Positions 5,664 through 59,749 of a stretch of 64,000 nucleotides of DNA are shown here, piece after piece. This DNA is from a virus. The notes under the pieces are model-generated. The model was not told the DNA's origin. It was given only the letters and a program-made list of their open reading frames with translations, and did no database searches. The stretch lies in IMG/VR virus record IMGVR_UViG_3300049979_000188; one strand, given 5' to 3'. Each line of letters begins with the position of its first letter. Position 1 is the first letter of the stretch. The position numbers were made by a program, and so were the translations under genes.

Positions 5664-6116
5664 ATGAAACCGTTTGAATCGCGTCAGACGGCTACTACCC
5701 TTGACTTCCTGGCCCTGAGTGAAACAGGGCGCCTGGAGCGTTGTAAAGTACGCCTAACGGCGATAATAGGGTTTGGCATTGTCCATGAGCCCGTTATGAC
5801 GCGGCACGCTACTTTCACGCGCTGGCGTACCACAGGTTACTTACTCACCCGGCAGCGGCGCTACCGGGTGAGCGTACGGGTAGTTCGCAGCTGGCAGCGC
5901 GCGTGGCGTTGGCAGCTGCGAAGCAAGGAGTTGCGGGTGGCCTTACGACGTGATGGCCAGGGTTCGGCCCACCGGGCGGTAGATTGGCATTACCTGGTGC
6001 TGGGTTACGTCCGTCGCGGAAGTCTGTGGCCCCGACGGCAGCGTCCAACACAAGTGGCGTCGGGGAGCGTGCGCGTGGTTGAGGACAAAAACAGCATAGT
6101 GGGTAACGAGAAGTGA
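5664..6116 (+). CDS. Hypothetical basic protein
   Basis: 150-aa ORF, co-oriented and filling the gap. Confidence 0.55.
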   Translation: MKPFESRQTATTLDFLALSETGRLERCKVRLTAIIGFGIVHEPVMTRHATFTRWRTTGYLLTRQRRYRVSVRVVRSWQRAWRWQLRSKELRVALRRDGQGSAHRAVDWHYLVLGYVRRGSLWPRRQRPTQVASGSVRVVEDKNSIVGNEK

Positions 6117-6130
6117 AAGGGGGACGTATA
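6103..6130 (+). promoter_or_regulatory. ECF-type promoter motif GTAAC-N17-CGTATA, overlapping a host-type TATATTTG box (6127-6134)
   Basis: Read directly; ATG follows at 6164. Confidence 0.6.
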
Positions 6131-6163
6131 TTTGCTTACCTTAACTTAATTCACTTCTCTGCC

Positions 6164-6439
6164 ATGCCTTCCACCACAAGTAGCTTACCTCGCCCTGAGG
6201 CTTTTTTTCACTATGCGTCTATGGTGGAGACACTGTTTGAAAAGGACCCGGTTGCCATGGGCTTGGCCGTTAAAATGCCTGTCGCTTCGCTGCGCGCCTA
6301 TATCCGAAGTTACCACCGCGACCATGTAATTGCCGGCTCAGACGAAGCCTCAGCCGGCGTCCGAGAAACGTACCTGCGTAACCTGGAACACAACGTTGTC
6401 TTGGCCGCCGCTCCGGGCTATAATTTTAGCCTTAACTAA
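6164..6439 (+). CDS. Hypothetical protein
   Basis: ATG at 6164 downstream of the promoter motif; followed by a terminator. Confidence 0.7.
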   Translation: MPSTTSSLPRPEAFFHYASMVETLFEKDPVAMGLAVKMPVASLRAYIRSYHRDHVIAGSDEASAGVRETYLRNLEHNVVLAAAPGYNFSLN

Positions 6440-6478
6440 AAAAAAAGCCACTCCTACCGGTAGGAGTGGCTTTTTTTT
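6438..6478. terminator. Bidirectional intrinsic terminator
   Basis: A-tract GCCACTCCTA-CCGG-TAGGAGTGGC T-tract between convergent genes. Confidence 0.9.
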
Positions 6479-8153
6479 AGGCGGCAGAAGCGACGTACTT
6501 CTTAAAGGGATTCGGCTGACTTTCCCGCAGGCTTTGCAGGGCCTCCTCCGTCAGGCTCGGGTCCGGTTCAAAGCCAGGCTCTGGCGTGGGTTCGTCAACT
6601 GGCAGCGGGGACTCCTCAAATACGGGTACCTGACCCCATTCCCCCTCGTCGAGTTTGCCCCAGCCTTCGGTGAGTACAGCCGGCACCATTTGCCGCGTTT
6701 CCAGTGCCTGGTCCACTGCGTCGTAAAAGCTATTGCCTTTGCTGACGGGAATACCTAACCCCTGAGCGGCTCGTACGTACTGGCCATGGGCCTGTTGGTG
6801 GAAGGTACGTAGCAGTGCGCGGTGCTCTTTGCGCAGGGCATAGCGCTGCTGCTGAATCTGGGCCACGTTTTCTTTGAAGCGGGCCATTTTGTCGGTAAAC
6901 TGCTCCTCGGCTTTGGTACGCTGCTGGGCCAGGCTGCGCAGCTCGCCGCTGGCTGCGCCTATTGAGTAGTCGTTTTGCAGTTTTTCCACCCCTTGCTGCA
7001 CGGCGGTGCGGGCCGTCTGAAACGCGTCAGTTGCGCGGTTGCCTAACTCAGCCGCTTTTTGCTGAACGCCCGTACGGGCTGACTGAACCGCACTGGCCGC
7101 CCGCGAGCCCAATTGGCCGGCTGCTTGCTGTACCGTACTACCGGGGGCGAACAAGCCTTTGATACCGGTTATGATGCCTTCGGCCAGCAGGGCCTGGCTC
7201 ACCTCTTCGTAGACCTGGGCTTCGGTGAGTACGCCGCTGCGTATGTCCGCTTGGTGCTCGCTGCAGTAGCGGGCAATGCTACGCTGCAGGGCCTCTTCGT
7301 TGAGTTGCATGGTTTGTTTGTTATACGTGTTGCCCGGCAGGGCAAACTGGTTATGGTATTGCTGAAAGTTCGCTTTAACCCAATCGGCGCATTGGCCAAT
7401 GCTACCAGAAAAGAGCGCTTTGCGGGTAACCTTGCTCATCACGCTCCAGCTGTGGTCATTCCACATCTTGAGGTGGACGATGCCCTGGGGGTTTACCTGA
7501 TTGCCCTGGAAAATAATTTGCGTCTCCTCATCGGCGTGATGGTAGACTTGCACGCCACTGTTTTGGAACATGACGGCCCCGTTCCCGTAGCGCTCGGTAC
7601 TGGCCGCTTCGAGCATGTCTTGTGAGCCGGCCAGGAAAGCAAAGTTATAGCCCGCGCCTTGTTTTTCAGGAGCCTCTTCCGGGAAATGCATGGTCAACCC
7701 AAGCCGGCGTGGGTCCGAAAAACCTTTTCGGAACCCCTGCACGGCGATGGCTTCGGCCTGGTAGCTGAAGTGCACTAGCCACGTAGTGCGGGGCAGTAGT
7801 TGCTCACGCTCTGCCTTTACGTGCGTGCCCGTCGGGGCTAGATGAGCACCCTGACCGTCGAGGTAGACGGCCAGGTCTTCTTCATAGCCAGTAGTAATCC
7901 AGTCGGGTAGCTTCCGGTAGTGGGTATCTGCTTCGAGGCCACGCAGTAGCTGGCCATCCTCGTCATCCTCGTTCTTAATACCCCACGCGGCCAGCGCGGC
8001 CGTTCTGGCCACTGGGTGGTCTTCGAGCCAGTCGCAGAAGTTTGACCAGTAATCAGCCGGGTCAAACGTAGTCCCATCCCAGCCAGGCTTAAGCAGGTTT
8101 TGCACCTGCTGGTTAGCGCGCGAGTATAATTCGTGGAGTGAAGTGATAGCCAT
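6477..8153 (-). CDS. Large hypothetical protein, possible internal virion protein
   Basis: 558-aa ORF with multiple L-x-E motifs, an internal 22-aa repeat and a coiled coil. Confidence 0.75.
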   Translation of the reverse strand: MAITSLHELYSRANQQVQNLLKPGWDGTTFDPADYWSNFCDWLEDHPVARTAALAAWGIKNEDDEDGQLLRGLEADTHYRKLPDWITTGYEEDLAVYLDGQGAHLAPTGTHVKAEREQLLPRTTWLVHFSYQAEAIAVQGFRKGFSDPRRLGLTMHFPEEAPEKQGAGYNFAFLAGSQDMLEAASTERYGNGAVMFQNSGVQVYHHADEETQIIFQGNQVNPQGIVHLKMWNDHSWSVMSKVTRKALFSGSIGQCADWVKANFQQYHNQFALPGNTYNKQTMQLNEEALQRSIARYCSEHQADIRSGVLTEAQVYEEVSQALLAEGIITGIKGLFAPGSTVQQAAGQLGSRAASAVQSARTGVQQKAAELGNRATDAFQTARTAVQQGVEKLQNDYSIGAASGELRSLAQQRTKAEEQFTDKMARFKENVAQIQQQRYALRKEHRALLRTFHQQAHGQYVRAAQGLGIPVSKGNSFYDAVDQALETRQMVPAVLTEGWGKLDEGEWGQVPVFEESPLPVDEPTPEPGFEPDPSLTEEALQSLRESQPNPFKKYVASAA

Positions 8154-8169
8154 GTTCCCTAAATAGGGC

Positions 8170-9613: not shown

Positions 9614-9621
9614 CAAATATA
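9614..9621 (-). promoter_or_regulatory. Bacteroidota housekeeping-type -7 box TATATTTG
   Basis: Matches TAnnTTTG, 4 nt upstream of the ATG at 9609; -33 element not clear. Confidence 0.45.
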
Positions 9622-9627: not shown

Positions 9628-9655
9628 GTAACGCCAAGTCTGTTTTTTGCGTAAA
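9628..9655 (+). promoter_or_regulatory. ECF-type promoter motif GTAAC-N17-CGTAAA upstream of the sbcD-sbcC fusion
   Basis: Exact motif; TTG start at 9683. Confidence 0.7.
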
Positions 9656-9682
9656 CAGTGCGTATAAATACCCGATAACACC

Positions 9683-12600
9683 TTGAAAAAACGCATTGCG
9701 CACTTAGCCGATATTCACATTGCCCGCAGTCCCTTGCGGCATGCCGAGTACCAGCAGGTCTTCTCCCGAACCGCCCGCCTGCTGCAAAGCGAAGCACCGG
9801 ACGTGATTGTGTTGACCGGAGACTTGTTCAACGACTACATTGCCGCCAGTAACGAGTCGACCCAGCTGGCCGGTAATTTTTTACGCAGCCTCTCGGCCAT
9901 TGCGCCCGTGGTACTCACCCGGGGTAACCATGATTACGACAAGTTTCGGCAAAACCGCATTGACTCGGTCAAGCCCGTGGTCGACTTGCTGGCCACCGAC
10001 CAGCTGCGTTACTTTAACAAGTCCGGTTTTTACCGCGACGATAACCTTATCTGGGTTGTCTGGCACCACGGGGATGAGCTCTCGCCCTGGAACGTGGCCC
10101 TGACCGCCCGTAAACAGGGGTATCCGGCTGATTTTTACGCTGACGACATCGAGCAGCTACTCAACCAATACGGGGATTTTGATGGCGTGCGGGCCGCAGG
10201 CTACACGCTAATCGACCTCTTCCATGACCCGGTGACCGGGGCCAAAGCCAGCAACGGGGAAGTATTTCGGGACGGTGCCTATTTGCGCCAAAGCGATTTG
10301 CAGGGCGATTACGCCCTGCTGGGTGACATTCACCTGCGCCAGTTCTTTACCCGGCCGGGTCAGCATCAGCCCTTTGCCGGCTACCCTGGCTCTTTGATTC
10401 AGCTGCACTTTGGCGAGGCCGAAACCGGACACGGATACTTGCTTTGGGACATTGAGGCCGATACGGTACGGGCGGTCGATGTACCCAACGACGTGTGTTA
10501 CTATACCGTTGTGGTGGAGCCAGGCACCGAGTACGATGCCTTGAGTCTGGTCTTGCCCGAGCCGACGGCCCCGGTGCCCCACGTGCGCATTTACTGGCGG
10601 GATAATTCCCTGCAGCAGACCCAGGCCAATAAAACCAAGCTGCGAAAATACTTCCGCGAGCGCTACGCCGCCGATGTGACGTTCGACCCGCACCCCGTTG
10701 ACCAGCGGCAGCTGCAGGCCGGGCGAGTGGGTACGGACCTGGACCAGCTTGACTTGACGGATGCCGGTTTGCAGCGTACGCTAATTACGGAGTATCTGGA
10801 GAGTAATGCCATCCCCCAGGAGCAGATTGTGTCCCTGCTTGAACTCGACGATACCATTACCGAGCGGTTGCGAATTGCGGATTCAAGCGAAGACGGCAAT
10901 TTACTCAGTGGCGATAGTAACGGGGAAGTGCGTCTGCTTAATCTGCGCATTGATAATTTCCAGTCCGTGGATGAGCTCACCCTCGACTTGCAGGCCCATC
11001 CTGGTCTTTGGCAAATTACGGGGCCTAATGAAACGGGCAAAACAACGGTGCCCATGGCCCTGCTTTACCTTAAATTTGGTAATACGCTGGGCACGGTGGT
11101 ACTTAAAAATGGGGAAATTAAAACACGCCCGGAAAAAAACGGCGATAACCGCTTTATCAACAACAAGCGCGATAAGGACTACTGCCAGGTTTCGGCTGAT
11201 TTTGAGGTAGCGGGTATCCTGGTACGGGCTACCCGTCGCTCGGAGCGCAAGTGGAAGCGTACCAAAGCTGATGAGCCCCGGCAAATAAGTAAAGTCTCCA
11301 CTGATTACCGGCTTGAACTCCTAACGTCTGACTTTCAGGTTGACCAAGATGTGAGCGTGGACAAGCGCCGGCGTACGGAGCGACTGGCCACGCAGGCATT
11401 TGGTACGTTCGACGACTTTCTGCGGCAGTCTTTTTTCTCGGCCGATACGATGAGTGGGCTGCTCTCCTTGGACCGGGCCGTCTTTATTGACACCTTGCTG
11501 CGTGACCTGCGCCTGGACCAGTACGAGCGCAAACTTAAAGTTTTCCGGGAGTGGAAAACCGAAGTCGGTAAGCGTCAGACCCGGCTGGTGCTTGACCAGG
11601 CAATCGAGGAAGGGAAGCTTCGGGCTACGGAAGCCAGCTTGGTGGAAGCCCGCGCGCAGCTACTCACCTTGCAGCAGCGTCAGCTCGCCCTTACCAGTGC
11701 GCTAAGTCGGGGCCAGCAGCAGCAAGCTAGCCTACACCAACAGTTTCAGCCCATGCCGGTCGAAGTAGGTGATACGCCCGAGCAAGTACTTCGTCAGCAG
11801 GTGCACGATGCCCTTGCCAGCGTGCATGCCCACGGCACTAAGGAGCAGGACTTACTGGTGCGTTGCCAGCAATTGCCCGCCACCTACGACGAAGTGCGCT
11901 ACCAGTCCCTACGAGCTCAAGTAGATGATTCTCAGGGTTGGGTTCGGAGCCAGGAGCTCGAAATCGAGCGCTTGGGTAATCAAGTCGACGCGCACCTCAA
12001 CAGCATTGTCCACCTCAAGGGCATGCTTGCCTTGACTAAGGAGAAGGCCGATGCCGTTAAGAAACGCTACGAGCGGGACGTGCAGGCCCTGGAAGCGGAG
12101 CTGCTGCGTCAGGACCGCGAGATTAGTCAGCTCGAACAAAGCACCGTCTGTCCTACCTGCCAGCAGCCCAAGTCTGCCGCCGCCGTAGCCGCCATCGAAC
12201 AGGAAGTAAGTCGTCGCCGTACCGCTCGGGGGTTGCACGAGCAGCGGCAACGAGCGGAGCTGCTCGCCGCGCGTGACCAGGAACTCGACGGTATGCGCGA
12301 GTCTTATCGCAGCTACCAGCAGCAGCTTACGGTCCAGCAGGAGCCCAAACAGCAGCTGGTAGACCAGCAGCAGGCCTTGCGAGCCGGTATTACGGCCCGT
12401 CAGCTTGAGTACGCTGACATGGGCCAGGAATTGGCTAGTCTGGACAAAGTGCGCCTTGACGTGGAACGTCGTCGAGAACTGGAGCTAAGTGGAGCGCGCT
12501 TTCCGCTTATTCGCGAGGAGCTCGAATTGCTGGTGCGTCAGAGTCGCGAACGGTTGGCCATTTTTGAGCAAGCGGAGAAAGTTCGCAAGGATAATCAGAA

Positions 12601-13255
12601 AGTGCGTGAGCAGCTTGCCCAGCTTGCCCAGCGGCAGCAGGAGCAGCAAAGCGAGCTGCGTCAGGTAGAAACCGAGTGCATTCGCCTGGAGCAGGCCTTC
12701 ATCCCTCGCCAGGAGCAGGAGCAAACCCAGCTTACGGACCGTTTGCTTAAGTACGGTGAGCAGCAGCAGCGCGAGCACGTGTGGAGCATTTACGAAAAAT
12801 GCATGAGCCGCGAGGGCTTGCCCATGCAGCTGCTTCGCCGGGCCCTGGGTCCCATCAATGAGCAAATGGCGGAGCTGCTTGAGGGACTTTGCTTTACCAT
12901 CTACCTGGACGAGGACCTGGAGTTCCGCATGCTCGACCACCGGGTAGCGGGTGTTGACCAGCACATTCTGCAGGGCTCGGGTATGGAACGCACCTTTGCT
13001 TCCCTGGTTCTGCGCCTGGGCCTGCGCCGGCTCAATCACCGTGCCCGCTGGAATATTCTTATTATGGACGAACTGCTGGGCAAGCTCGATGCCGAGGCGA
13101 CGGTGCGTTACGCCGAGCTGCTGCGTACGGCTACCATGAGCATTGAGCACGTCTTCGTTATCGAGCACCACGGCGAAGGGATTCTACGACCGGACCACCT
13201 GCTCAAAGTGCATGCTTATAAGGGGGTGAGCAAGTACCAGCTGAGTCTCAATTAG
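9683..13255 (+). CDS. sbcCD: Fused SbcD (Mre11) nuclease - SbcC (Rad50) ATPase
   Basis: HLADIH, GDLFN, GNHD, LGDIH and YPGSL phosphoesterase motifs; Walker A GPNETGKTT; CPTC zinc hook; coiled coil; QGSGME signature; Walker B IMDELLGKLD; IEHH. Confidence 0.92.
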   Translation: MKKRIAHLADIHIARSPLRHAEYQQVFSRTARLLQSEAPDVIVLTGDLFNDYIAASNESTQLAGNFLRSLSAIAPVVLTRGNHDYDKFRQNRIDSVKPVVDLLATDQLRYFNKSGFYRDDNLIWVVWHHGDELSPWNVALTARKQGYPADFYADDIEQLLNQYGDFDGVRAAGYTLIDLFHDPVTGAKASNGEVFRDGAYLRQSDLQGDYALLGDIHLRQFFTRPGQHQPFAGYPGSLIQLHFGEAETGHGYLLWDIEADTVRAVDVPNDVCYYTVVVEPGTEYDALSLVLPEPTAPVPHVRIYWRDNSLQQTQANKTKLRKYFRERYAADVTFDPHPVDQRQLQAGRVGTDLDQLDLTDAGLQRTLITEYLESNAIPQEQIVSLLELDDTITERLRIADSSEDGNLLSGDSNGEVRLLNLRIDNFQSVDELTLDLQAHPGLWQITGPNETGKTTVPMALLYLKFGNTLGTVVLKNGEIKTRPEKNGDNRFINNKRDKDYCQVSADFEVAGILVRATRRSERKWKRTKADEPRQISKVSTDYRLELLTSDFQVDQDVSVDKRRRTERLATQAFGTFDDFLRQSFFSADTMSGLLSLDRAVFIDTLLRDLRLDQYERKLKVFREWKTEVGKRQTRLVLDQAIEEGKLRATEASLVEARAQLLTLQQRQLALTSALSRGQQQQASLHQQFQPMPVEVGDTPEQVLRQQVHDALASVHAHGTKEQDLLVRCQQLPATYDEVRYQSLRAQVDDSQGWVRSQELEIERLGNQVDAHLNSIVHLKGMLALTKEKADAVKKRYERDVQALEAELLRQDREISQLEQSTVCPTCQQPKSAAAVAAIEQEVSRRRTARGLHEQRQRAELLAARDQELDGMRESYRSYQQQLTVQQEPKQQLVDQQQALRAGITARQLEYADMGQELASLDKVRLDVERRRELELSGARFPLIREELELLVRQSRERLAIFEQAEKVRKDNQKVREQLAQLAQRQQEQQSELRQVETECIRLEQAFIPRQEQEQTQLTDRLLKYGEQQQREHVWSIYEKCMSREGLPMQLLRRALGPINEQMAELLEGLCFTIYLDEDLEFRMLDHRVAGVDQHILQGSGMERTFASLVLRLGLRRLNHRARWNILIMDELLGKLDAEATVRYAELLRTATMSIEHVFVIEHHGEGILRPDHLLKVHAYKGVSKYQLSLN

Positions 13256-13256: not shown

Positions 13257-13284
13257 GTAACGTAGCCCCTGAAAAACCCGTAAA
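13257..13284 (+). promoter_or_regulatory. ECF-type promoter motif GTAAC-N17-CGTAAA
   Basis: Exact motif immediately after the sbcCD stop; ATG at 13306. Confidence 0.7.
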
Positions 13285-13305
13285 CCGAGTATATCCACGT
13301 ACTTT

Positions 13306-13923
13306 ATGCGAGAACGCCGCGAAATTATCAAACTGGCCGGTCAGCTGCAGCAGGGAAGCCCGCTGCAGCCTAGCGCCCTGGCCAAATTCATCGAAGACCA
13401 CCAGCTCAGCAGTGAGGAAGTAGCCATGCTTCAAGGGGAGCTTATTAGCAACATTGTCGTCTTGTTCAGTACCCAGCAAGCCACGACGGCCCTGCTGCGT
13501 CAACATAAGCCCGTAGCCGTTACTGCGCCAAGCCCCAGTGTGCCTAGCTTGGCGCAGTTACCCGACGAGTTGCTCAGCGAGGCCATTGGCCAGCCGCTCT
13601 ACCAGGCCGGTGACCCCGTGCCTTGGTACGGAACTTACCAGCGTCGACTCGGCACCGGCCTGTATGTGAAGCGTAGTGACGGCTCAGGGCCCATGGATGC
13701 GCAACTCGAAAGCCTCTACTCGTTTCCCTATGACCCGCAGGCCTACAAGCAGGCCCGGGCCGGAGGCTTCGTGCGCTACTACTACCCCAGCAAGGGCCTG
13801 GACTTGGTTCACGTAGACCAAATCGCCCTTATCGACGCCAATACCGGCTCCTTGCAGCTCAGCAATGGCAAACTTATTCCGCTTACCTACATCACGGGTA
13901 TTTTCGACAAGAACCTCTCATGA
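13306..13923 (+). CDS. Hypothetical protein
   Basis: 205-aa ORF; stop overlaps the next start (ATGA). Confidence 0.75.
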   Translation: MRERREIIKLAGQLQQGSPLQPSALAKFIEDHQLSSEEVAMLQGELISNIVVLFSTQQATTALLRQHKPVAVTAPSPSVPSLAQLPDELLSEAIGQPLYQAGDPVPWYGTYQRRLGTGLYVKRSDGSGPMDAQLESLYSFPYDPQAYKQARAGGFVRYYYPSKGLDLVHVDQIALIDANTGSLQLSNGKLIPLTYITGIFDKNLS

Positions 13924-14849
13924 GTCAACCTAAAGAACCCACGCCGCTGCTCATGCTGCTGCTCGGTACGCCTGGCTACGTAACGGAGCCTGAAACCAAA
14001 CCATACCGTATCCTGCCCCTGCGCTACCAACGCGGTAACTTTCCCGGGGGAGAAGTATTTTTTCGACTCGACCACCCCGATTACGTAACGGGTAAACCCG
14101 TACTCGTAACGGCCCGTTTGCGCAGTAGTGACGACGTAATGGCTTTGCTTATGGCCACCGATGCCCTGCGCCGGCTTTACCCGGCTAGTCTCACCCTTAA
14201 ACTCTTTTACCTGCCCTATGGGCGCCAGGACCGGGTTGCCGTGGAAGGCGAATCGCTCTCGGTTGCCGTGATGGGGGAACTGCTTAAAAACTTGCCCTAC
14301 GAAAGCATCTTCGTGCTCGAACCCCATAGCGACGGGTCGGCCATTGCCTTGGGGCCCAAGGCTACCATGCTTACCAATAACAGCGTAGGCTACGCCCAGT
14401 TCGTGCGCCACAGCCTCCTGGAGCAAGGCCTTACCCCCGATAAGGTTGTCTTGGTAAGTCCGGACGCGGGGGCCGCCAAACGCCAGGTTCGCATGAGCCA
14501 GGATTTGCAGCTCTTTGACGTAGCCGAAGGCAAAAAGCACCGCGATTTGGAAACTAACCGGTTAACGGGCTTTGGCGTTGACCGGGAAGACTTCCAGGGT
14601 AAAGTTGCCCTTATTGTCGATGACCTCTGCGACGGGGGAGGCACATTTGTGGGCCTGGCTAAGGTTTTGCGCGAACGGGGGGCTTCGGCCGTGCACCTGA
14701 TGGTCACGCACGGGCTTTTCCCCAAAGGACTCGCTATTTTTCAGGGCCTCATCGACGTGGTGTACTCCACCAACTCCTACCGTGATTTTGACGACTTAGC
14801 CCCGGTAGAGGGCGTGCGCTTTCTGGCGTACAAGCTCCAACTATTCTAA
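13920..14849 (+). CDS. prs: Ribose-phosphate pyrophosphokinase-like protein (candidate NARP1 Adps)
   Basis: FPGGE, YLPYGRQDRV, VSPDAGA and PRPP-binding IVDDLCDGGGTF; adjacent to a Nampt-like gene. Confidence 0.9.
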   Translation: MSQPKEPTPLLMLLLGTPGYVTEPETKPYRILPLRYQRGNFPGGEVFFRLDHPDYVTGKPVLVTARLRSSDDVMALLMATDALRRLYPASLTLKLFYLPYGRQDRVAVEGESLSVAVMGELLKNLPYESIFVLEPHSDGSAIALGPKATMLTNNSVGYAQFVRHSLLEQGLTPDKVVLVSPDAGAAKRQVRMSQDLQLFDVAEGKKHRDLETNRLTGFGVDREDFQGKVALIVDDLCDGGGTFVGLAKVLRERGASAVHLMVTHGLFPKGLAIFQGLIDVVYSTNSYRDFDDLAPVEGVRFLAYKLQLF

Positions 14850-14873: not shown

Positions 14874-15704
14874 ATGTGGTTAGGCTCCCTGCTTCACACC
14901 GACGTCTATAAAGTCGGCCACGAAGCCCAATACCCGGAAGACATCACCAAAATCTACTCGACGCTGGTGGCCCGGTCCGGGAAAACCTACCCGGCCTCCG
15001 TTCAATTCGGCGACAGCTTCTACTTGAAGGAATACCTGATGAACGGCATCAAGCGCGGCGACGTGCAGCAATTTATGCTGCTGGCTGACGCCATCCTGGG
15101 CCCGGGTAAAGTTAAACCCGCCGACTTCTACAAACTTCAGGAGCTAGGTTACTGGCCAGTGGAAATCAAGAGCTTACCCGAGGGCTCGCTGGTACGCACC
15201 GGGAACGTACTCACGAGCTACGAGAGCACCAACAAGGACTTGCCCTGGGTGGGTGGCTTTTTGGAAGGCCTTACCCTTAAAGTGTGGAACTCCTCGACGG
15301 TGGCCACTAATTCGTTCCGCTTGCGTAAGGTGGTGGAGCTCTTTGCCGAGCGCACTGCTGAGACAATGGACCACGTGGACTACCAGATTCACGATTTCGG
15401 CTACCGCGGCTGCTCTTCGGAGGAAACGGCCGCCATTGGCGGGGCTGCCCACTTGCTGTCTTTCCGGGGCACGGACACGATTCCCGGGGTGGCCCTGCTC
15501 GATACGTTCTACAACGTGGATAACTCGACGCCGCTCTCGGCCATCGGTAACTCCGTACCGGCTTCTGAGCACAGTGTAGCTTGCGCCTGGTCGGGCACTC
15601 AGGCTAAGTACGTAGACAGCGTGGAAGAAATCTTTGACGAAGTCACTGGTCGCTGGCTTGTGAGTCACTATCTGAAAGATGGTAAAGTCGTGTCGAACGT
15701 GTAA
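14874..15704 (+). CDS. nadV: Nicotinamide phosphoribosyltransferase-like protein (candidate NARP1 Namat), N-terminal part
   Basis: LHTDVYKVGH..QYP, HDFGYRG, HLLSFRGTDT and SVPASEHSV; ends at TAA 15702-15704 before the C-terminal half. Confidence 0.88.
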   Translation: MWLGSLLHTDVYKVGHEAQYPEDITKIYSTLVARSGKTYPASVQFGDSFYLKEYLMNGIKRGDVQQFMLLADAILGPGKVKPADFYKLQELGYWPVEIKSLPEGSLVRTGNVLTSYESTNKDLPWVGGFLEGLTLKVWNSSTVATNSFRLRKVVELFAERTAETMDHVDYQIHDFGYRGCSSEETAAIGGAAHLLSFRGTDTIPGVALLDTFYNVDNSTPLSAIGNSVPASEHSVACAWSGTQAKYVDSVEEIFDEVTGRWLVSHYLKDGKVVSNV

Positions 15705-16347
15705 GCAGGAAAAACCATTAACTGAGTTTTCTCGCTATGCGCAAGCTGCTGATGGCTTACGTCCTGTGTGCAAGTGTTGCATTAATGCGTACAACAGACA
15801 AAAACGTGCTGAGCACCTCCACCAATACCAAACAGGTCAACGGAAACGCTATCAACTAAATCCCCAAAAATTTCGAGCTGAGAAACTGGTTTATGAGGCC
15901 GAGCACAAAGCTGAAAAAGCAGCCTACGATAAAGTTTATCGTCAACGAAACGCTCTTAAACAGGCACAAGCTAAACGAGAGTGGACTGAACGGAATCGCA
16001 CCAATCCACTTGTAAAGCTTAAACGGAATTTACGTCGCCGATTACATCATGTACTCGCTGGCACCAATAAGGCCGCCAGCACCATGGAATTAATTGGCTG
16101 TACAATTGACGAACTACGAAGCCACCTTGAAGGGCAGTTTACCGCGCTAATGAGTTGGGATAACTACGGGCCATACGGCTGGCATGTCGACCATCGACAA
16201 CCTTGTTACACATTTGATTTAACAGACCCTGACCAACAACGCGTCTGTTTCCATTTTAGTAATTTACGACCGCTTTGGTGGTTAGAAAACGTTTCTCGGC
16301 CTCGGCCTAAACACTATGCATCAAACTCGCATCCGTCTACTCAGTGA
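15679..16347 (+). CDS. HNH-type homing endonuclease inserted in the Nampt gene
   Basis: N-terminal CxxC...CxxC zinc finger; C-terminal MSWDNYG..GWHVDHRQPC..FDL....Q..CFHFSNLRPLW..EN; visibly AT-richer; overlaps both Nampt halves in a third frame. Confidence 0.85.
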   Translation: MVKSCRTCKQEKPLTEFSRYAQAADGLRPVCKCCINAYNRQKRAEHLHQYQTGQRKRYQLNPQKFRAEKLVYEAEHKAEKAAYDKVYRQRNALKQAQAKREWTERNRTNPLVKLKRNLRRRLHHVLAGTNKAASTMELIGCTIDELRSHLEGQFTALMSWDNYGPYGWHVDHRQPCYTFDLTDPDQQRVCFHFSNLRPLWWLENVSRPRPKHYASNSHPSTQ

Positions 16348-17350
16348 GCGTGAAACGCTCCAGTATGGAGAGTACCGTTATTTCGAGAACATGCTTGACC
16401 TTTACCCCACCGGTATTGTTAGCGTGGTATCCGATACGTATGACCTCTGGCATGTCATAACGAATTACCTGCCGCGGCTAAAATCGCGCATTCTAGCTCG
16501 CGATGGTAAGCTTGTTCTTCGCCCTGATTCAGGGGACCCTGAGCTGATTCTGCTCGGTGACCCGAATGCGCTTGAAGGCTCACCAGCTAACCTCGGGGTA
16601 CTTGAACTACTCTGGAATGAATTCGGTGGTACCATTAATACCAAGGGCTACCGCGTACTTGACCCGCGTATCGGCGTTATCTACGGCGATGGCATCTACT
16701 ACGAGCGCCTGGTGCGCATTCTAGTGGGCATGGAACGCAAGGGCTATGCTACGGTTATCCCGTTCGGCATCGGCGGGCTGCTGCTCCAGCAGTTTAGTCG
16801 CGATACGCTCGCCTTTGCTATCAAGGCTACCTACGTGGAGGCGAATGGTGAGGGGCGTGACATCATGAAGGACCCCATTACCGACCACGCTAAAAAGTCC
16901 TTCAAAGGCCGCGTAGTCGTCACGCGTGACCCCATTACGCAAGAGTACGTAACGCGTGACCAGGTAAGTCAGGAAGAAGCGGCCGGTGGGTTGCTGCAGC
17001 TTATCTACCGCAACGGGGTGCTCTACAACAGCCCCAGCCTGGCTGAAATTCGGACCCGACTGGCCGCTGAACCCCTGCCGGCCGGCTTCGTGCCAACGAT
17101 GGAGGAGCTCTATGCCCTGGCCGACGCTACTCCGCTCTCGCGCTACCAGACAAAATCGGATACCGCGCCGCTGAGTTTTGAAACAGTTCGCAACTGGCTG
17201 GCTACGCAAGGTGCCGACTTTACGCAAGCGCAGGTAGCGGAAGTGCTGATGGCATTGGGCGTAGCTGAAACTACGACTGAGGAGGCTGATTCGGCGCTTA
17301 ACCCGGCCCCGGAAGGGAAACCGGGTTCGCAGAAAGCTCGTCGTAAGTAG
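16316..17350 (+). CDS. nadV: Nampt-like protein, C-terminal part with an extra tail
   Basis: YPTGIVSVVSDTYD, LVLRPDSGDP, GVIYGDGI, FGIGG.LLQ, RDTLAFAIKAT and KDPITD..KKSFKG. Confidence 0.88.
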   Translation: MHQTRIRLLSERETLQYGEYRYFENMLDLYPTGIVSVVSDTYDLWHVITNYLPRLKSRILARDGKLVLRPDSGDPELILLGDPNALEGSPANLGVLELLWNEFGGTINTKGYRVLDPRIGVIYGDGIYYERLVRILVGMERKGYATVIPFGIGGLLLQQFSRDTLAFAIKATYVEANGEGRDIMKDPITDHAKKSFKGRVVVTRDPITQEYVTRDQVSQEEAAGGLLQLIYRNGVLYNSPSLAEIRTRLAAEPLPAGFVPTMEELYALADATPLSRYQTKSDTAPLSFETVRNWLATQGADFTQAQVAEVLMALGVAETTTEEADSALNPAPEGKPGSQKARRK

Positions 17351-21319: not shown

Positions 21320-21348
21320 GCTCGTACGCTACCGCCGGCAGTATTTAG

Positions 21349-22265: not shown

Positions 22266-22274
22266 ATTTGACCT

Positions 22275-23087: not shown

Positions 23088-23115
23088 GTAACGTCGCGCC
23101 CCTGTTCCGCGTAGA
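23088..23115 (+). promoter_or_regulatory. ECF-type promoter motif GTAAC-N17-CGTAGA
   Basis: Read directly; ATG 6 nt downstream at 23122. Confidence 0.65.
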
Positions 23116-23121
23116 CTTGGC

Positions 23122-24530: not shown

Positions 24531-24564
24531 AAAAGGCCCTCGGTAACGAGGGCCTTTGTTTTTT
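24531..24564 (+). terminator. Terminator whose loop carries the -35 of the next promoter
   Basis: AAAAGGCCCTCG-GTAA-CGAGGGCCTTTGTTTTTT. Confidence 0.8.
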
Positions 24565-24570
24565 CGTAGA
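24543..24570 (+). promoter_or_regulatory. ECF-type promoter motif GTAAC-N17-CGTAGA
   Basis: Read directly; ATG at 24600. Confidence 0.65.
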
Positions 24571-24599
24571 CTGGGCTTTCTACTCTTTAGTTTCCCTTT

Positions 24600-33676: not shown

Positions 33677-33704
33677 ACAGTCTGTTTGAGTTCTTTATGA
33701 CTAG

Positions 33705-33732
33705 TTTACGACGAAAAAAAGGTGCTCGTTAC
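33705..33732 (-). promoter_or_regulatory. ECF-type promoter motif GTAAC-N17-CGTAAA
   Basis: Plus strand TTTACG-N17-GTTAC; gene start at 33676. Confidence 0.7.
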
Positions 33733-34636: not shown

Positions 34637-34659
34637 AAAAAAGCAAGATATGCAGGGTG

Positions 34660-34687
34660 TTTACGCAAAAAAACCCGCAGCTGTTAC
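34660..34687 (-). promoter_or_regulatory. ECF-type promoter motif with the -35 in a terminator loop
   Basis: TTTACG-N17-GTTAC; overlaps hairpin AAAAAAACCCGC...GCGGGTTTTTTT (34667-34700). Confidence 0.7.
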
Positions 34688-38052: not shown

Positions 38053-38070
38053 AATCAGATGAGTCAGTAG

Positions 38071-38098
38071 TTTACGTAAGGTAGCAGATGCCCGTTAC
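38071..38098 (-). promoter_or_regulatory. ECF-type promoter motif; the -35 contains the upstream TAA stop
   Basis: TTTACG-N17-GTTAC. Confidence 0.7.
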
Positions 38099-38870: not shown

Positions 38871-38877
38871 ACCGTAG

Positions 38878-38905
38878 TTTACGCCAAAAAAACCGCACCC
38901 GTTAC
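38878..38905 (-). promoter_or_regulatory. ECF-type promoter motif with the -35 in a terminator loop
   Basis: TTTACG-N17-GTTAC within AAAAAAACCGCACC...GGTGCGGTTT. Confidence 0.7.
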
Positions 38906-40164: not shown

Positions 40165-40167
40165 TAG

Positions 40168-40195
40168 TTTACGGAGAAAAGACACTAGGTGTTAC
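40168..40195 (-). promoter_or_regulatory. ECF-type promoter motif
   Basis: TTTACG-N17-GTTAC. Confidence 0.7.
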
Positions 40196-41738: not shown

Positions 41739-41740
41739 AG

Positions 41741-41768
41741 TTTACGTTAAAAAGAAGGTGCCCGTTAC
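41741..41768 (-). promoter_or_regulatory. ECF-type promoter motif; the -35 contains the upstream TAA stop
   Basis: TTTACG-N17-GTTAC. Confidence 0.7.
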
Positions 41769-43362: not shown

Positions 43363-43396
43363 GGGAAGAAAAAAGGGGGTTGGTGAATATACTAAG

Positions 43397-43424
43397 TTTA
43401 CGGAAAAATAAAAGTCCCCGTTAC
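43397..43424 (-). promoter_or_regulatory. ECF-type promoter motif; the -35 contains the upstream TAA stop
   Basis: TTTACG-N17-GTTAC. Confidence 0.7.
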
Positions 43425-44534: not shown

Positions 44535-44543
44535 AGTAGCTAG

Positions 44544-44571
44544 TTTACGCCGGACTCGGAGAACTCGTTAC
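44544..44571 (-). promoter_or_regulatory. ECF-type promoter motif
   Basis: TTTACG-N17-GTTAC; ATG 9 nt downstream. Confidence 0.7.
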
Positions 44572-47005: not shown

Positions 47006-47058
47006 AAAAAAAAAAGGGATGTGTACGTAGTTTACGTACACATCCCCTGGGTCGTTAC
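47006..47058 (-). promoter_or_regulatory. ECF-type promoter motif (47031-47058) embedded in a 14-bp-stem hairpin terminator
   Basis: GGGATGTGTACGTA-GTT-TACGTACACATCCC with an A10 tract; TTTACG-N17-GTTAC; the -35 contains the upstream TAA. Confidence 0.7.
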
Positions 47059-48398: not shown

Positions 48399-48451
48399 AC
48401 CAGCTGAAGGGTGAGTACCGGTATAGCTTTCTTGGCGAATGCAGTGCCCGG

Positions 48452-48500
48452 TTTACGCAAAAATACACCCCACTGTGCAAAAGACAATGGGGTGTACTAA
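48452..48500 (-). promoter_or_regulatory. Variant promoter motif TGCAC-N17-CGTAAA with the -35 in a terminator loop
   Basis: TTTACG at 48452, GTGCA at 48475, inside hairpin TACACCCCA...TGGGGTGTA. Confidence 0.45.
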
Positions 48501-50319: not shown

Positions 50320-51573
50320 TTAGGGTATGCGGCGGTCAACAAGGGGTTGACGACCACGGTAAACAAGTCCGCTCAACCCGTCGATAGTCAGCCACTCACC
50401 CTGAGCAACCCGCTCGCCGGAGGCCAGCACCAGGGTGTTGTTTTCGATTGTAAAGTTGGCCCCGACTACGGCCGGAATGCCGGCGCGCATGGCTTCGAGG
50501 GCGGCATGGGAGGTTTGACCACCCGTGTGGGTGAGAATGCCCCCGCACTGGACCATATCCACGACTTCTTCGGCAAAGGTATGCTCGGCTACGTAGAGGC
50601 AATCAGCTCCCGTCTGAGCCGGCTTGGGCCCAAAGAAAACGCGGCCGCTCACCGCGCCTGAAACTGCACCCAACCCTTGGGCTACGGGCCACTCAGTAGT
50701 AGCAATGCTTAGCCACCAGGGCGCCTTGCTGTCGCGCCGGTTTACCAGGCTTTCCGCTTGCTGGGGCGTGAGAATACCCACGCGCTGCATCGAGGCCGCA
50801 ATACGCGCAGCCGCTGGCGCGGCAATGTGGCGCAGCAACCGGGCTTGCACCAAGTAGAGGATGGGCTCTGCCCCGGCAACAGGACTCGGTGAGAAGACAA
50901 ATTCTACGTCAACGGGCCCGCCAAAGCGACTTTCCAGTAGTGGCTGTAGGGCGCGTAAACGCGCCTGGTAGTCGAGCGGGAGCTCCTGACTCGGGGTTTG
51001 CCTGCCGCCCACAAGTTCGCCGCCGGTAGTGGCTTCCAAGGCCTCAATAATACCCACCTCAGCGCCCGTATGGGGGTTACGGCTAAAGTAAGTGCCGGCC
51101 CAGCTGCCGGGCTCAGGGGCCACGTAGTTCTGAATCACAATCCCCATTCCAAACTTTTGGTCCAGGCGATAAAGCGCGCGAAACTTGGTGGCCGATTCGC
51201 TGTACCAGGACCCGATTACGCGCCGCAGTGCGGCGTGCAACGCGCGCGTGTTCAGCGTACGCGGGTCGGCGTTGGGCACATCAACGACCGTCTCCAACTG
51301 TCCGGGCATAGATACCAGCGGGGAGGAGCGCACGGCCAATCGCTGACCCAGGTGCAGGTACACCTCGTTTTCTACCTGGGCCCAGTCAGCGTGGTAAATA
51401 CCCAGGCCGGGCTCGTGCTGCGCGATATGCTCGTATTCGGCCGGCAGGATGAGCGCGCGGGGTACCTGAAAAAGTCCGCAAAAGCTGAGTTCACCCAGCA
51501 CCAGCAGGTTGGCAGCCTTTGCGCCAATGTTAACTTCGTCGGCGTGGGGGTCAAGCAGGGTTACCGGATTCAT
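50320..51573 (-). CDS. Truncated pyruvate phosphate dikinase-like protein (ATP-grasp plus phospho-His domains only)
   Basis: IGAKAANL, VRSS..VSMPG.LETV, AGT.FSRNP.TG, DVEF, LYLVQAR and GGQTSHAA (His carrier); no C-terminal PEP/pyruvate barrel. Confidence 0.85.
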   Translation of the reverse strand: MNPVTLLDPHADEVNIGAKAANLLVLGELSFCGLFQVPRALILPAEYEHIAQHEPGLGIYHADWAQVENEVYLHLGQRLAVRSSPLVSMPGQLETVVDVPNADPRTLNTRALHAALRRVIGSWYSESATKFRALYRLDQKFGMGIVIQNYVAPEPGSWAGTYFSRNPHTGAEVGIIEALEATTGGELVGGRQTPSQELPLDYQARLRALQPLLESRFGGPVDVEFVFSPSPVAGAEPILYLVQARLLRHIAAPAAARIAASMQRVGILTPQQAESLVNRRDSKAPWWLSIATTEWPVAQGLGAVSGAVSGRVFFGPKPAQTGADCLYVAEHTFAEEVVDMVQCGGILTHTGGQTSHAALEAMRAGIPAVVGANFTIENNTLVLASGERVAQGEWLTIDGLSGLVYRGRQPLVDRRIP

Positions 51574-51601
51574 GGACAGGGGTTGTTGGTTTCGTAGCTA
51601 G

Positions 51602-51629
51602 TTTACGGAAAACCCGGTTTACCCGTTAC
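51602..51629 (-). promoter_or_regulatory. ECF-type promoter motif
   Basis: TTTACG-N17-GTTAC; gene start at 51573. Confidence 0.7.
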
Positions 51630-52921: not shown

Positions 52922-53374
52922 TTACGTACTGGAAGGGCGCTGACCACGGCCGGGTACACGCACAGTGGTAGGTTTGGGCAACGCAACGTGAAAGAAAGGT
53001 ACCTGCCGGGCTAGAAACTCGGCGAGCGTACACTCCTGCAGGTTATAGTAGAGGAAGCCTTGCTCCCCACTCTCCTGCCACCTGATAACGGCCTGTAGCT
53101 GGGCCTCACTCATGACTTCGAGCTCACTGGCCATCTCCTCATCCTGCGGGGCGTAGAGCAGCCGGCCGCTGCTGAGCTTTGTCCACCCCTGGTTGATAAA
53201 CCAACGCTCCGCGTTCTGGGGCTTTGTGGCTTGCGGGTAGAGGTGGGCGAAGAGCTCGGGGGCAAAGAGCCGGTGACCCTGACGCTCGCAGCGGTAGAAG
53301 CGACCCGCTCGGTCTAAAAAACCCGTTGGGCAATAGCCGGCAAGCATTTCTGAGTGGAAGGCAACACTATCCAT
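52922..53374 (-). CDS. Paralog family member 3 (GFLDRAG..CERQGH..GWTKLSSG)
   Basis: Shared motifs. Confidence 0.75.
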   Translation of the reverse strand: MDSVAFHSEMLAGYCPTGFLDRAGRFYRCERQGHRLFAPELFAHLYPQATKPQNAERWFINQGWTKLSSGRLLYAPQDEEMASELEVMSEAQLQAVIRWQESGEQGFLYYNLQECTLAEFLARQVPFFHVALPKPTTVRVPGRGQRPSST

Positions 53375-53404
53375 GGTGCGTCAAGTAGAGTAAGTACTGG
53401 CTGG

Positions 53405-53440
53405 TTTACGCACAACAGGCCCGGCTTGTTACGCCGGGCC
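53405..53440 (-). promoter_or_regulatory. ECF-type promoter motif (53405-53432) with the -35 in a hairpin loop
   Basis: TTTACG-N17-GTTAC within GGCCCGGC...GCCGGGCC. Confidence 0.7.
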
Positions 53441-54590: not shown

Positions 54591-55589
54591 CTACTGGGCT
54601 TGGAAGGTGAGAAAATCGGAGAGTTTCCAGTCCATGCCATTGAAATCAATGGTTTCCGAGTCCTGGAGCTCGCGCCAGCTTAGCACCACTTCCAGCTGCT
54701 GGGGTGTCAGGCGCATGGAAGCCGGACTGAAATGGTAAAGCCGGCCCGAGGAGAGTTTAGCCCAGCCTTTGCTGTCGAGCAGGCGCTGCTCATCCCAGGG
54801 TTCATCCGCCCCCAGTGGACCCGGGTAATATTTTTTCTTTAGCAGCGGGGCCAGCCAGGTGTGGGCCTGAAAAGAGCACGCGTAGAAGAGGCCCTCCGGG
54901 CTCAGGTAGCCGTGCTGAACCACGGAATGGGCCATGGAGCTGGGCTCGGGTGCCTGCTCTTCCACGGGGGCTTGGTAGGGGCGGGAGGTACGCTTCGCCG
55001 GGGCAATACCCGCCGCCGCTTCCAAGGCATCCAGGCGCTCGGCCCGGGCCTGAATACCCTGGGCATACAAGCGCAGAAAATCGGGCGCCGCATCCGGAAT
55101 CGCCTCCACCGGGTTTACGAGCTTAAGCAGGCGGGCCAGTTTTTGGAGCCGCTGGTAGGTGGCATTCGCTTTCTGGCGCAGCTCATCGGCATCCTCAGCC
55201 GCTACCGACACCCGGGCGACGATTTTAGAAGTATAAACTCCTACATCTACGCAGCCGTGCAGGTGATTACGCTCCGGGTTGGCCGCCTTCGCGCACGCCT
55301 CGGCGTACTCGGCAAACTGCAGCTCGTAGTAGGCCCCCAACCGCTCCATCGTATCTTGGGGAGAAGGTAAGGCGGGCAAATTAGCCTTCACTACACCCTG
55401 TCCATCCGGGGTGAAGGTGAGCTTACCGGCAAAGAACTCACGCACGTGCTTTCTTTTCAAGCCACCTCCGAGCAGAATATCGACGGCCAGGTCGGGTTTA
55501 TAGTGGGTCCAGAACTCACGTAGCTGCTCGGCCAGGCCGTCGCCGTCAACGCGAAAGGAAAGAGTATGGGCGGAGCTTGCTGGCTGCAT
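54591..55589 (-). CDS. Two-domain protein with paralog family domain 5 at the C-terminus (GYLSPEG..CSFQAH..GWAKLSSG)
   Basis: Shared motifs in the last ~115 aa. Confidence 0.75.
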   Translation of the reverse strand: MQPASSAHTLSFRVDGDGLAEQLREFWTHYKPDLAVDILLGGGLKRKHVREFFAGKLTFTPDGQGVVKANLPALPSPQDTMERLGAYYELQFAEYAEACAKAANPERNHLHGCVDVGVYTSKIVARVSVAAEDADELRQKANATYQRLQKLARLLKLVNPVEAIPDAAPDFLRLYAQGIQARAERLDALEAAAGIAPAKRTSRPYQAPVEEQAPEPSSMAHSVVQHGYLSPEGLFYACSFQAHTWLAPLLKKKYYPGPLGADEPWDEQRLLDSKGWAKLSSGRLYHFSPASMRLTPQQLEVVLSWRELQDSETIDFNGMDWKLSDFLTFQAQ

Positions 55590-55614
55590 AAGAAGGAAAG
55601 TGAAAGAGGAGTAG

Positions 55615-55642
55615 TCTACGTTTTCTCCGGGCCCGGCGTTAC
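55615..55642 (-). promoter_or_regulatory. ECF-type promoter motif GTAAC-N17-CGTAGA
   Basis: TCTACG-N17-GTTAC. Confidence 0.65.
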
Positions 55643-55938
55643 TAGGTACGCCAAAAGGTGTTCACCAGTTTGCGCCGCTGGGTAGGGCTGGCCAGTAGCA
55701 GCATCCGGGCCAGGCCTATGCCGGCTAAATCACCTTTCTCAGCAGCGTACGCCTGGCACCATTCGATGCTGGAGGTCCCCAAGTTTAGGTCGTCCAAAAC
55801 GATGTGTAGGCTGCCGCCTACTGCGTTACCAGGCAGGGCGTAATAGGCTCGCGTAGCGGCGACGAGCTCAGGCAGTATTGGTTTACGCGTTAGTACGAGC
55901 AGCTCCTCAAAGCTGGTAGCTAATTCGGTGTCAGACAT
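55642..55938 (-). CDS. Small conserved phage protein
   Basis: GGSLHIVLDD.N...I.WC pattern. Confidence 0.65.
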   Translation of the reverse strand: MSDTELATSFEELLVLTRKPILPELVAATRAYYALPGNAVGGSLHIVLDDLNLGTSSIEWCQAYAAEKGDLAGIGLARMLLLASPTQRRKLVNTFWRT

Positions 55939-55995
55939 AAAAAAAAGGGGACCTAGTGAGTCCCCTTTTTACGCTAAAAGTCACTAAGCTGTTAC
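55939..55995 (-). promoter_or_regulatory. ECF-type promoter motif (55968-55995) followed directly by a terminator hairpin
   Basis: TTTACG-N17-GTTAC (the -35 contains the upstream TAA); AAAAAAAGGGGAC..GTCCCCTTTTT. Confidence 0.7.
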
Positions 55996-58949: not shown

Positions 58950-58983
58950 GGTCAGACTAGTTAAGGGGCTACAGACAAGCAAG

Positions 58984-59011
58984 TATACGTGAAAGGCTAC
59001 CCCTCCGTTAC
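58984..59011 (-). promoter_or_regulatory. ECF-type promoter motif GTAAC-N17-CGTATA
   Basis: TATACG-N17-GTTAC. Confidence 0.6.
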
Positions 59012-59296
59012 GACCGCTGGAAAGTAGCGCAGCCCCGAAGCGCTCACGAATAAATCGGCTTGCAAGGCAGCCTCCAGTCGGGCTACCTGGTCGTAGAAGC
59101 CATCCAGCCCAAAGAGGAAAATGGCTAGCTCATGGGGGCTCATGTGGAGGCGCTCGGCAAGCTCGGGCGCTGTTATGCCCTGGCGAGCAAGAACCGTGTT
59201 AAGCTCTTCGCTAAGGTCAAAGGTTTTGGAAACCGAAATTTTAACCGCCACGGGCGTGCGATTCAGTACCTGGGTAACGAGCGGGTCAGTGGGCAT
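58997..59296 (-). CDS. Xre-like HTH protein
   Basis: LARQGITAPELAERLHMSPHELAIF...LEAAL; start trimmed to MPTDPL. Confidence 0.6.
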   Translation of the reverse strand: MPTDPLVTQVLNRTPVAVKISVSKTFDLSEELNTVLARQGITAPELAERLHMSPHELAIFLFGLDGFYDQVARLEAALQADLFVSASGLRYFPAVVTEG

Positions 59297-59300
59297 TAGC

Positions 59301-59672
59301 TTACGAGTTTGGGTCAAAATGACGGCAGCAGTGGTCGTGGCCGAGTCGCTCGACAAGTTTAGGCTCTACCAGGCACTGGCCGTAATCAGTGGTGCTGCTG
59401 GGCCCATACATGGCTAGGGCAGGCTTACTGCGCTTGTAGAAGCTGCAGTTACGGCACTGGCGTACCAGCGGCTCCGTGCTTACCGGTTCGGGCCACTGCA
59501 GCAAGCGTTTGAGCTGGTCACCGAGTTGGGCGGCTTGCTTGGACTCCGCCCCACTTAGGCCGTGCGTGGCCACGTGCTGGCCACCCTCGGCATCAAGGGC
59601 AAAAACGATTAGCTGCGTTGCCCCGAGCTGCTCGCGATAACGCTTGACGCTAGCAATGGTAATCTTTTCCAT
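59301..59672 (-). CDS. Hypothetical protein with a C-terminal Cys cluster
   Basis: CRNCSFY...GQC...CCRHF. Confidence 0.65.
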   Translation of the reverse strand: MEKITIASVKRYREQLGATQLIVFALDAEGGQHVATHGLSGAESKQAAQLGDQLKRLLQWPEPVSTEPLVRQCRNCSFYKRSKPALAMYGPSSTTDYGQCLVEPKLVERLGHDHCCRHFDPNS

Positions 59673-59702
59673 GGGTGTAGAAGAAAAAAATATGAAAGCC
59701 AG

Positions 59703-59749
59703 TTTACGCAAAACCCACCCTGTGTCGTTACGGACTAAGGGTGGGTTTT
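59703..59749 (-). promoter_or_regulatory. ECF-type promoter motif (N18 spacer, 59703-59731) with the -35 in a terminator loop
   Basis: TTTACG-N18-GTTAC inside AAAACCCACCCT...AGGGTGGGTTTT. Confidence 0.6.

Follow-up and report, generated by a model that had tools for sequence, protein, structure and literature searches.

What reads the bipartite word GTAAC...CGTA that stands before gene after gene in IMG/VR virus record IMGVR_UViG_3300049979_000188, and which genes does it serve? The analysis covered a stretch of 64,000 nucleotides (nt) of this record (hereafter the window), in which the two halves of the word recur at a fixed distance and in which an open reading frame (ORF) at 1206-1787(+) encodes a protein of the extracytoplasmic function (ECF) sigma type. 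The recurring sites are very probably ECF-type promoters, and the product of ORF 1206-1787 is, with fair probability, the sigma that reads them, this link being drawn indirectly.

The pattern GTAACN17CGTADA was found 19 times in the window (5 plus and 14 minus), against an expectation of 0.06 from dinucleotide-preserving shuffles and at most one match of the exact pattern in 100 such shuffles. Widening the spacer to N16-18 gained an N18 copy at 59705-59731(-) and a single intragenic N16 match at 25552; the latter was rejected as a member of the class, being intragenic, poor in its -10 region, and chance-like in its weight-matrix score (12.9). The weight matrix was built from the sites (6 positions at the -35 and 8 at the -10) and used to scan both strands of the window. 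Scores were bimodal, with 20 sites at 19.0-25.7 and all else at or below 13.7, which is the level of shuffled sequence, and the GTAAC sites are therefore a discrete, closed class without a tail of weak copies. Their consensus is GTAACG-N16-CGTAaACT, in which bases not forced by the search pattern were also conserved (G after GTAAC in 15/19; after CGTA, A in 14/19, A in 19/19, C in 17/19 and T in 14/19). Taken by themselves, the GTAAC word occurred at chance level (135 vs 124 expected in the window) and the -10 word CGTAAACT was enriched (14 vs 2.1 expected). The signal therefore resides in the combination of both words at fixed spacing. The form GTAAC-N16-CGTT had zero copies in the window, no Rfam family matched the sites, and a scan of IMG/VR for the exact pattern GTAAC-N17-CGTAAACTA returned single, chance-level matches only. 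An earlier note on this DNA had counted 20 motif copies and one TGCAC variant, and this census held as 19 exact N17 copies, one N18 copy, and a variant at 48450-48479(-) composed of TGCAC (48479-48475), N17, and CGTAAACC (48457-48450).

All 20 sites were located at gene junctions and pointed in the same direction as the next gene (5 in the plus block and 15 in the minus block), so that their orientation flips with the coding strand as the earlier note had described; a motif scan, which it proposed as a check for the whole genome, gave intergenic, sense-only placement in the window, the lone intragenic match at 25552 being the chance-like one. A copy was present in 21 of about 40 intergenic gaps of at least 25 nt. 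The start codon followed 6 to about 50 nt past the end of the 28-nt motif. At five sites the stop codon of the upstream ORF was the TAA within GTAAC, and at one more an upstream TAG overlapped the G of GTAAC.

In Bacillus subtilis, sigmaW promoters start transcription about 12 nt past the C of CGTA. Measured from that same C, the distance to the start codon in the window had a minimum of 12 nt, and because no start codon lies closer than this, a transcription start near +12 fits the spacing. Three genes stood at or just past this limit, namely those behind the sites at 23088..23117(+) (ATG 23122, 12 nt), 38876..38905(-) (ATG 38870, 13 nt), and 44542..44571(-) (ATG 44534, 15 nt), which suggests leaderless messages for these three; elsewhere the distance was 24-55 nt. 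The promoters of Salmonella phage 7-11, with start sites 6-9 bp downstream, agree with a start near +12 (PMC8948821).

The layout itself, AAC at the -35 and CGT at the -10, had been assigned to the ECF type, and this assignment was upheld by the experimentally defined B. subtilis sigmaW promoter tgaAAC...CGTA, in which CGTA is the sigmaW-selective -10 element (PMC5758882). The B. subtilis ECF sigmas W, X, M, and V likewise combine AAC at the -35, CGT(A) at the -10, and a 16-17 bp spacer with a sigma made of regions 2 and 4 only (PMC5758882). These sigmas are cellular, stress-induced, autoregulated, and held by anti-sigmas, whereas the one in the window is phage-borne, without a motif of its own and without a recognisable adjacent anti-sigma. 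The Bacillus T-tract adjoins the -35, whereas the T-run here adjoins the -10 and comes from overlapping terminators. A T-rich spacer was rejected as a required promoter element, because it was absent at hairpin-free sites and the T-richness of the logo came from terminator U-tracts.

ECF (group 4) sigmas contain regions 2 and 4, lack regions 1.1 and 3, and are about 170-220 amino acids (aa) long. The 193-aa product of ORF 1206-1787 scored 54.8 bits against the NCBIfam model TIGR02937 (sigma70-ECF; cut-off 42.9), with positions 2-165 of the 165-position profile aligned, and also matched Pfam Sigma70_r2 and phrog_1740. Blocks for regions 2.4 and 4.2 were both found in the alignment, and the closest solved structure by sequence was SigL of Mycobacterium tuberculosis. 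By sequence, then, ORF 1206-1787 encodes a true ECF-type sigma factor, and the full-length TIGR02937 match confirms the statement that the window encodes its own. It is a rare protein, with only 2 matches below 1e-30 and 17 below 1e-10 in a profile search of 1.8 billion representatives. A word-index search gave three homologues (52-59% identity), each on a short Logan contig; homologue-bearing contigs came from Logan, JGI, and NCBI (8,842 bp, 23,432 bp, and 318,810 bp), and the homologues P0002 and P0163 lie on contigs of 8.8 and 7.3 kb. No relatives were found in IMG/VR by using the single protein, 4- and 6-sequence alignments, or the distant homologue P0007, and none were found in JGI metagenome contigs, phage records, or plasmid records.

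The link between sigma and motif was approached through cellular ECFs. The signature of region 2.4, [VI]A[RKN]N[HNY]L[IF]DY, was scanned in one genome per prokaryote species, which yielded 20 distant ECFs; these bacterial proteins were picked solely by this signature, which they share in the form ARNHL[IF]DYYR. Four of the 20 (three from Peribacteria and one from Dojkabacteria) carried GTAAC-N16-CGTA in exact form 4-22 nt upstream of their own start codon. The 20 loci together (153 kb of strand) contained five such matches, of which these four were the own-gene upstream sites; the fifth, in the Dojkabacteria locus (L164:1610-1634(+)), lies about 110 nt past the ECF sigma gene on the same strand and probably belongs to the regulon of that cellular sigma. 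Autoregulation is usual among ECFs and is the basis on which their promoters are predicted (PMC7826278), and an own-gene upstream site therefore reports the specificity of the ECF. Read from these loci, ECFs with this -10-reading region do use GTAAC/CGTA. Among phages, ten distant genomes with a homologue (35-42% identity) of the 667-aa protein encoded in the window were searched whole and had no motif enrichment, and no homologue of the 1206-1787 sigma was found in the five of them that were searched for it. Two more phages, G011 and G012, with remote sigma-like genes, also had no motif enrichment. These motif-poor distant phages point weakly toward the sigma-motif link.

Several observations weigh against the assignment of these promoters to this one sigma. 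The gene at 1206-1787 has no GTAAC...CGTA upstream (1088-1205 searched), unlike typical autoregulated ECFs. The Peribacteria and Dojkabacteria ECFs share region 2.4 with the phage sigma and not the region 4 recognition helix, and they therefore support the -10 word better than the -35 word. Lastly, the window holds a second, divergent sigma-like gene, ORF 4678-5472(+) (264 aa), as a possible rival reader or as the sigma of another gene class. Its nearest ESM Atlas clusters were viral "RNA polymerase sigma factor family protein" entries (very high score; template-modelling (TM) score of the structure 0.55), and hhalign aligned residues 63-122 with sigma region 2, though with low probability. 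No match was found in Pfam, NCBIfam, or PHROG. AlphaFold2 models were poor (predicted local distance difference test (pLDDT) 45 and 54), with sigmaE as the top Foldseek match, not significant (E=0.39), and no relatives were found in metagenome contigs, IMG/VR, phages, or plasmids. A homologue of this ORF (P0161) and one of the ECF sigma (P0006) are each recorded on a 318,810-bp NCBI contig, which is probably the same one for both, from one related phage retaining both sigma-like genes. It is probable that several phage sigmas are present. The earlier note had proposed a private sigma regulon; the ECF sigma and the promoter class stand, but with ORF 4678-5472 in the window this sigma may not be the only one.

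A second promoter class was observed in the window, and the GTAAC class does not cover everything. In Bacteroidota, promoters of the primary sigma consist of TTG at -33 and TAnnTTTG at -7. Boxes of the TAnnTTTG form were present 4-29 nt before six start codons, at 9614-9621(-), 19233-19240(+), 22263-22270(+), 26009-26016(+), 29076-29083(+), and 45617-45624(-). The motif -10, CGTAaACT, does not fit TAnnTTTG, and the GTAAC motif as a whole is unlike the TTG/TAnnTTTG boxes of the window. A regulon extending over recombination, NAD+ recycling, and most accessory genes had been proposed; GTAAC promoters do stand before such genes, but at least six gene starts carry TAnnTTTG boxes. The TGCAC variant at 48450 is similarly present as described, but a host-type promoter, TTG-N19-TATTTTTG, fits the same place. 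A Shine-Dalgarno-like 4-mer at -18 to -5 was found before 0 of 61 ATG-start genes (about 5 expected), and the regions before start codons were G-poor and rich in T and C. The lack of Shine-Dalgarno use and the TAnnTTTG boxes fit a probable host of Bacteroidota type. Several of the boxes lie only 4-6 nt from the start codon, so that their messages would be leaderless, and the box ending at 9621(-) forms a divergent pair with the GTAAC promoter at 9628(+). At 45628-45635(-), downstream of a terminator, a perfect CGTAAACT word is preceded by a poor -35 word (GTTTA) and overlaps a host-type TTG-N19-TAGCTTTG; this element may be a hybrid or decayed promoter.

Many of the promoters were fused to terminators. 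Of the 20 sites and the variant, 10/21 overlapped a hairpin (-15 to -24 kcal/mol) with a U-run after it; among random positions, 12.5% passed at the much laxer threshold of -8. Two layouts were distinguished. In six cases the -35 word falls within the loop or next to it, with the 3' part of the spacer supplied by the U-tract: 24543..24572(+) (stem GGCCCTCG / CGAGGGCC, dG -20.5), which leads to 24600-25244; 34658..34687(-) (fused to the upstream terminator hairpin, dG -16.8), which leads to 34277-34636; 38876(-) (dG -20.6); 53403..53432(-) (-35 in the loop of hairpin GGCCCGGC / GCCGGGCC, dG -18.7), which leads to 52922-53374; the 18-nt-spacer copy at 59701..59731(-) (-35 within the hairpin, dG -17.9), which leads to 59301-59672; and the variant TGCAC-N17-CGTAAACC at 48450(-) (dG -22.1), which lies upstream of a BCS1-like AAA ATPase gene (47055-48398). 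A clean GTAA tetraloop was seen at 24543 and 38876. In the other four cases the upstream gene ends inside or against GTAAC, and the hairpin therefore comes later. At 47029..47058(-), where the upstream stop is the TAA of GTAAC, a 15-bp hairpin is centred on the -10 (dG -23.8); this site leads to 46658-47005. The hairpin begins 4-8 nt past the C of CGTA at the remaining three: 40166..40195(-) (upstream stop abutting GTAAC, hairpin from 8 nt past the C, dG -18.8), which leads to 38928-40118; 41739..41768(-) (stop as TAA of GTAAC, hairpin from +8, dG -20.2), which leads to a small ORF ending at 41364; and 55966..55995(-) (stop as TAA of GTAAC, hairpin and U-run from 4-8 nt, dG -15.4), which leads to 55642-55938. 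With a start near +12, RNA born at such a promoter would lack all, or the G-rich beginning, of the 5' arm, whereas read-through RNA would contain the full hairpin. This terminator escape is something that we infer from the geometry only.

The sites might instead be read by another phage sigma-like protein, such as the divergent product of 4678-5472, with the ECF sigma serving some other promoter set. That protein does look sigma-like, its gene lies in the same run as the ECF sigma gene, and the pair appears to be retained together (P0161 and P0006, each from a 318,810-bp contig); however, AAC/CGT is an ECF hallmark and only 1206-1787 passes the ECF model, while phage G011, which has a homologue of 4678-5472 at 27% identity, is without motif enrichment and so gives weak evidence against this reading. 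On balance it is unlikely. A host ECF sigma that the phage switches on, for example via removal of an anti-sigma, with the phage sigmas doing other work, is less likely again: the motif is indeed a generic ECF promoter, used in its exact GTAAC-N16-CGTA form by cellular ECFs of two bacterial lineages, but the phage has a complete ECF sigma of its own, and a conditional host stress sigma would be a risky choice for 20 promoters in 64 kb.

Sigma appropriation as at the middle promoters of phage T4, in which GTAAC would be the box of a phage activator like MotA and the -10 would be left to the host primary sigma, appears very improbable. An invariant -35-like box does resemble a MotA box, and two sites overlap host-type TAnnTTTG boxes (CGTATATTTG at 6103, and the 48450 variant), but the -10 CGTAaACT is invariant and unlike the TAnnTTTG boxes elsewhere in the window, and the proteins scanned included none that resembled MotA or AsiA. 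There is as little to be said for the sites not being promoters at all, but a terminator-tied signal at the RNA or DNA level, for example a processing site, a module for termination, or a PeSL-like (promoter-early stem-loop) cassette for recombination. The strong hairpins with U-runs at 10/21 sites, against 12.5% of random positions at the much laxer threshold, and the repetition of the modules at gene boundaries would be explained by such a signal, whereas eleven sites without a hairpin and a hairpin position that varies (around the -35, on the -10, or after it) would not. Two conserved blocks with a free spacer of fixed length are moreover the imprint of a two-domain DNA-binding protein and not of an RNA structure, and the lack of any Rfam match argues in the same direction.

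The preferred explanation is that the GTAAC sites are phage-private ECF promoters with a -35 of GTAAC(G), a 17-bp spacer (18 at one site), and a -10 of CGTAaACT, which would be read by host core RNA polymerase together with a phage ECF-type sigma, most probably the 193-aa product of 1206-1787. The sigma gene heads a packed gene run that extends to 6116 and includes ORF 4678-5472, a possible host-type TTG(1146)-N21-TAGATTGG(1170) lies upstream of it, and the first GTAAC promoter (6103) comes after it. The next gene, ORF 1824-2720, had no Pfam match, and no anti-sigma domain was found among the proteins scanned (a subset of the ORFs). Because no motif copy precedes the run 1206-6116, the unmodified host holoenzyme would transcribe it first. 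The new holoenzyme would then activate the GTAAC promoters that stand before genes for recombination, NAD salvage, and RNA repair and before many unknown accessory genes, with transcription from about 12 nt past the C of CGTA and three messages that would be leaderless. The promoters are packed into gene ends, where the TAA of GTAAC often closes the prior gene and an intrinsic terminator surrounds about half of them. The order of expression, the start site, and promoter activity are what we infer here. A further extension is possible though doubtful, namely a sigma cascade in which two or three phage sigmas share the GTAAC -35 and differ only in spacer length and -10 word (here N17-CGTAAACT), and in which terminator-embedded promoters let their own RNA, lacking the 5' arm, escape the hairpin. 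If true, each gene would be an insulated unit under its own sigma only.

The remaining sites lead to a diverse set of genes. On the plus strand, the copy at 6103..6132 (score 19.9; -10 region CGTATATT) leads to ORF 6164-6439; that at 9628..9657, divergent from the host-type box at 9614-9621(-), leads to a fusion gene of Mre11/Rad50 type (9683-13255); and that at 13257..13286 leads to 13306-13923, a Prs-like gene, and split Nampt-like genes. The Nampt-like gene (14874-17350(+)), which follows the Prs-like gene (13920-14849), is split, with a 222-aa ORF at 15679-16347 separating its N-terminal ORF from its C-terminal one, and all of these lie behind the 13257 promoter. On the minus strand, 33703..33732 leads to the 667-aa phrog_1735 protein (31673-33676), and 38069..38098, where the stop of the upstream ORF is the TAA of GTAAC, leads to 37843-38052. 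The copy at 43395..43424 leads to 42787-43362 (phrog_1383, annotated as a virion structural protein), that at 51600..51629 to a PPDK-like small dikinase (50320-51573), that at 55613..55642 to 54591-55589, and that at 58982..59011 to an ORF with its ATG at about 58946.

Other features of the window were recorded alongside. The word TATTTAG occurs shortly before five gene starts, at 1107-1113(-), 8159-8165(-), 21342-21348(+), 25963-25969(+), and 29072-29078(+), including those of a GH16-like gene and a large minus-strand gene; as a third motif it was rejected for lack of overall enrichment in the window (7 vs 5.3 expected), and its occurrences may be due to chance or belong to a third type of promoter. 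A TnpB-like transposase gene (19247-20449(+); phrog_506, E=2e-128) has a host-type TTG-N19-TATATTTG box of its own, which lies 6 nt upstream of the ATG, and an SNF2-type helicase gene (59756-62434(-)) contains an intein insertion with Hint and LAGLIDADG homing-endonuclease domains (Pfam). Perfect hairpins with flanking A-runs and T-runs at 6440-6476 and 29893-29941, between convergent genes, are likely two-way terminators; the latter lies at the coding-strand switch.

The arrangement has relatives among known phages. PeSL cassettes of T4-type phages reportedly carry host sigma70 early promoters; like them, the sites described here combine a standard promoter with a stem-loop repeated at many gene boundaries, and unlike them they have an ECF-type promoter and a variable hairpin position. 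In Salmonella phage 7-11, SaPh711_gp47 recognizes late promoters of the form GTAAtg-N16-aCTA, and there, as would be the case here, a phage sigma with regions 2 and 4 acts on host core RNA polymerase at a bipartite, phage-only promoter (PMC8948821). The geometry is also shared, with a 6-mer starting GTAA, 16 bp, and a 4-mer ending TA. In contrast to 7-11, however, the -10 is CGTA and not aCTA, 20 promoters fall within 64 kb as opposed to 8 in the whole 7-11 genome, accessory and DNA-metabolism genes are served in place of late structural genes, and the probable host is Bacteroidota-like. No homology was found between the 1206-1787 sigma and gp47 or gp36, and tblastn on 50,697 phage records gave no match at E 1e-3 or better. 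Coliphage phiEco32 gp36 is an ECF-like sigma that redirects host RNA polymerase to middle and late phage promoters (PMC12276001). The phage in the window would do likewise with an ECF-type sigma and phage promoters, although gp36 uses a single-element promoter (tAATGTAtA), has an atypical C-terminal domain, and depends on a co-factor, gp79, for which no counterpart was identified here. More broadly, sigmas presumed to redirect host RNA polymerase are common in jumbo phages that lack an RNA polymerase of their own (PMC13282480, PMC7824862).

The window contains the two components by which a phage sigma regulon is recognized, an encoded sigma and one recurrent, sense-oriented consensus upstream of phage genes, and the set adds a large and clean case to a phage strategy already known, without being a new kind of system. 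Its particular features are the use of canonical ECF grammar by a phage, a density of 20 copies per 64 kb, a sharp class, the probable presence of several phage sigmas, and the fusion of stop codon, terminator, and promoter, an overlap which shows how tightly such units can pack. To our knowledge, only a handful of pairs of phage sigma and promoter have been characterized. Phage ECF sigmas were also left out of the main ECF classification (PMC7826278). The present pair is unusually clear, with an invariant core, 20 copies in the window, and no weak intermediates, and genetic tools are scarce for the probable host group, which does without Shine-Dalgarno sequences and uses TAnnTTTG promoters. 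Such an orthogonal pair of sigma and promoter is directly testable in vitro or in a reporter strain, and for a 203-kb uncultured phage, sequence alone yields a transcription map.

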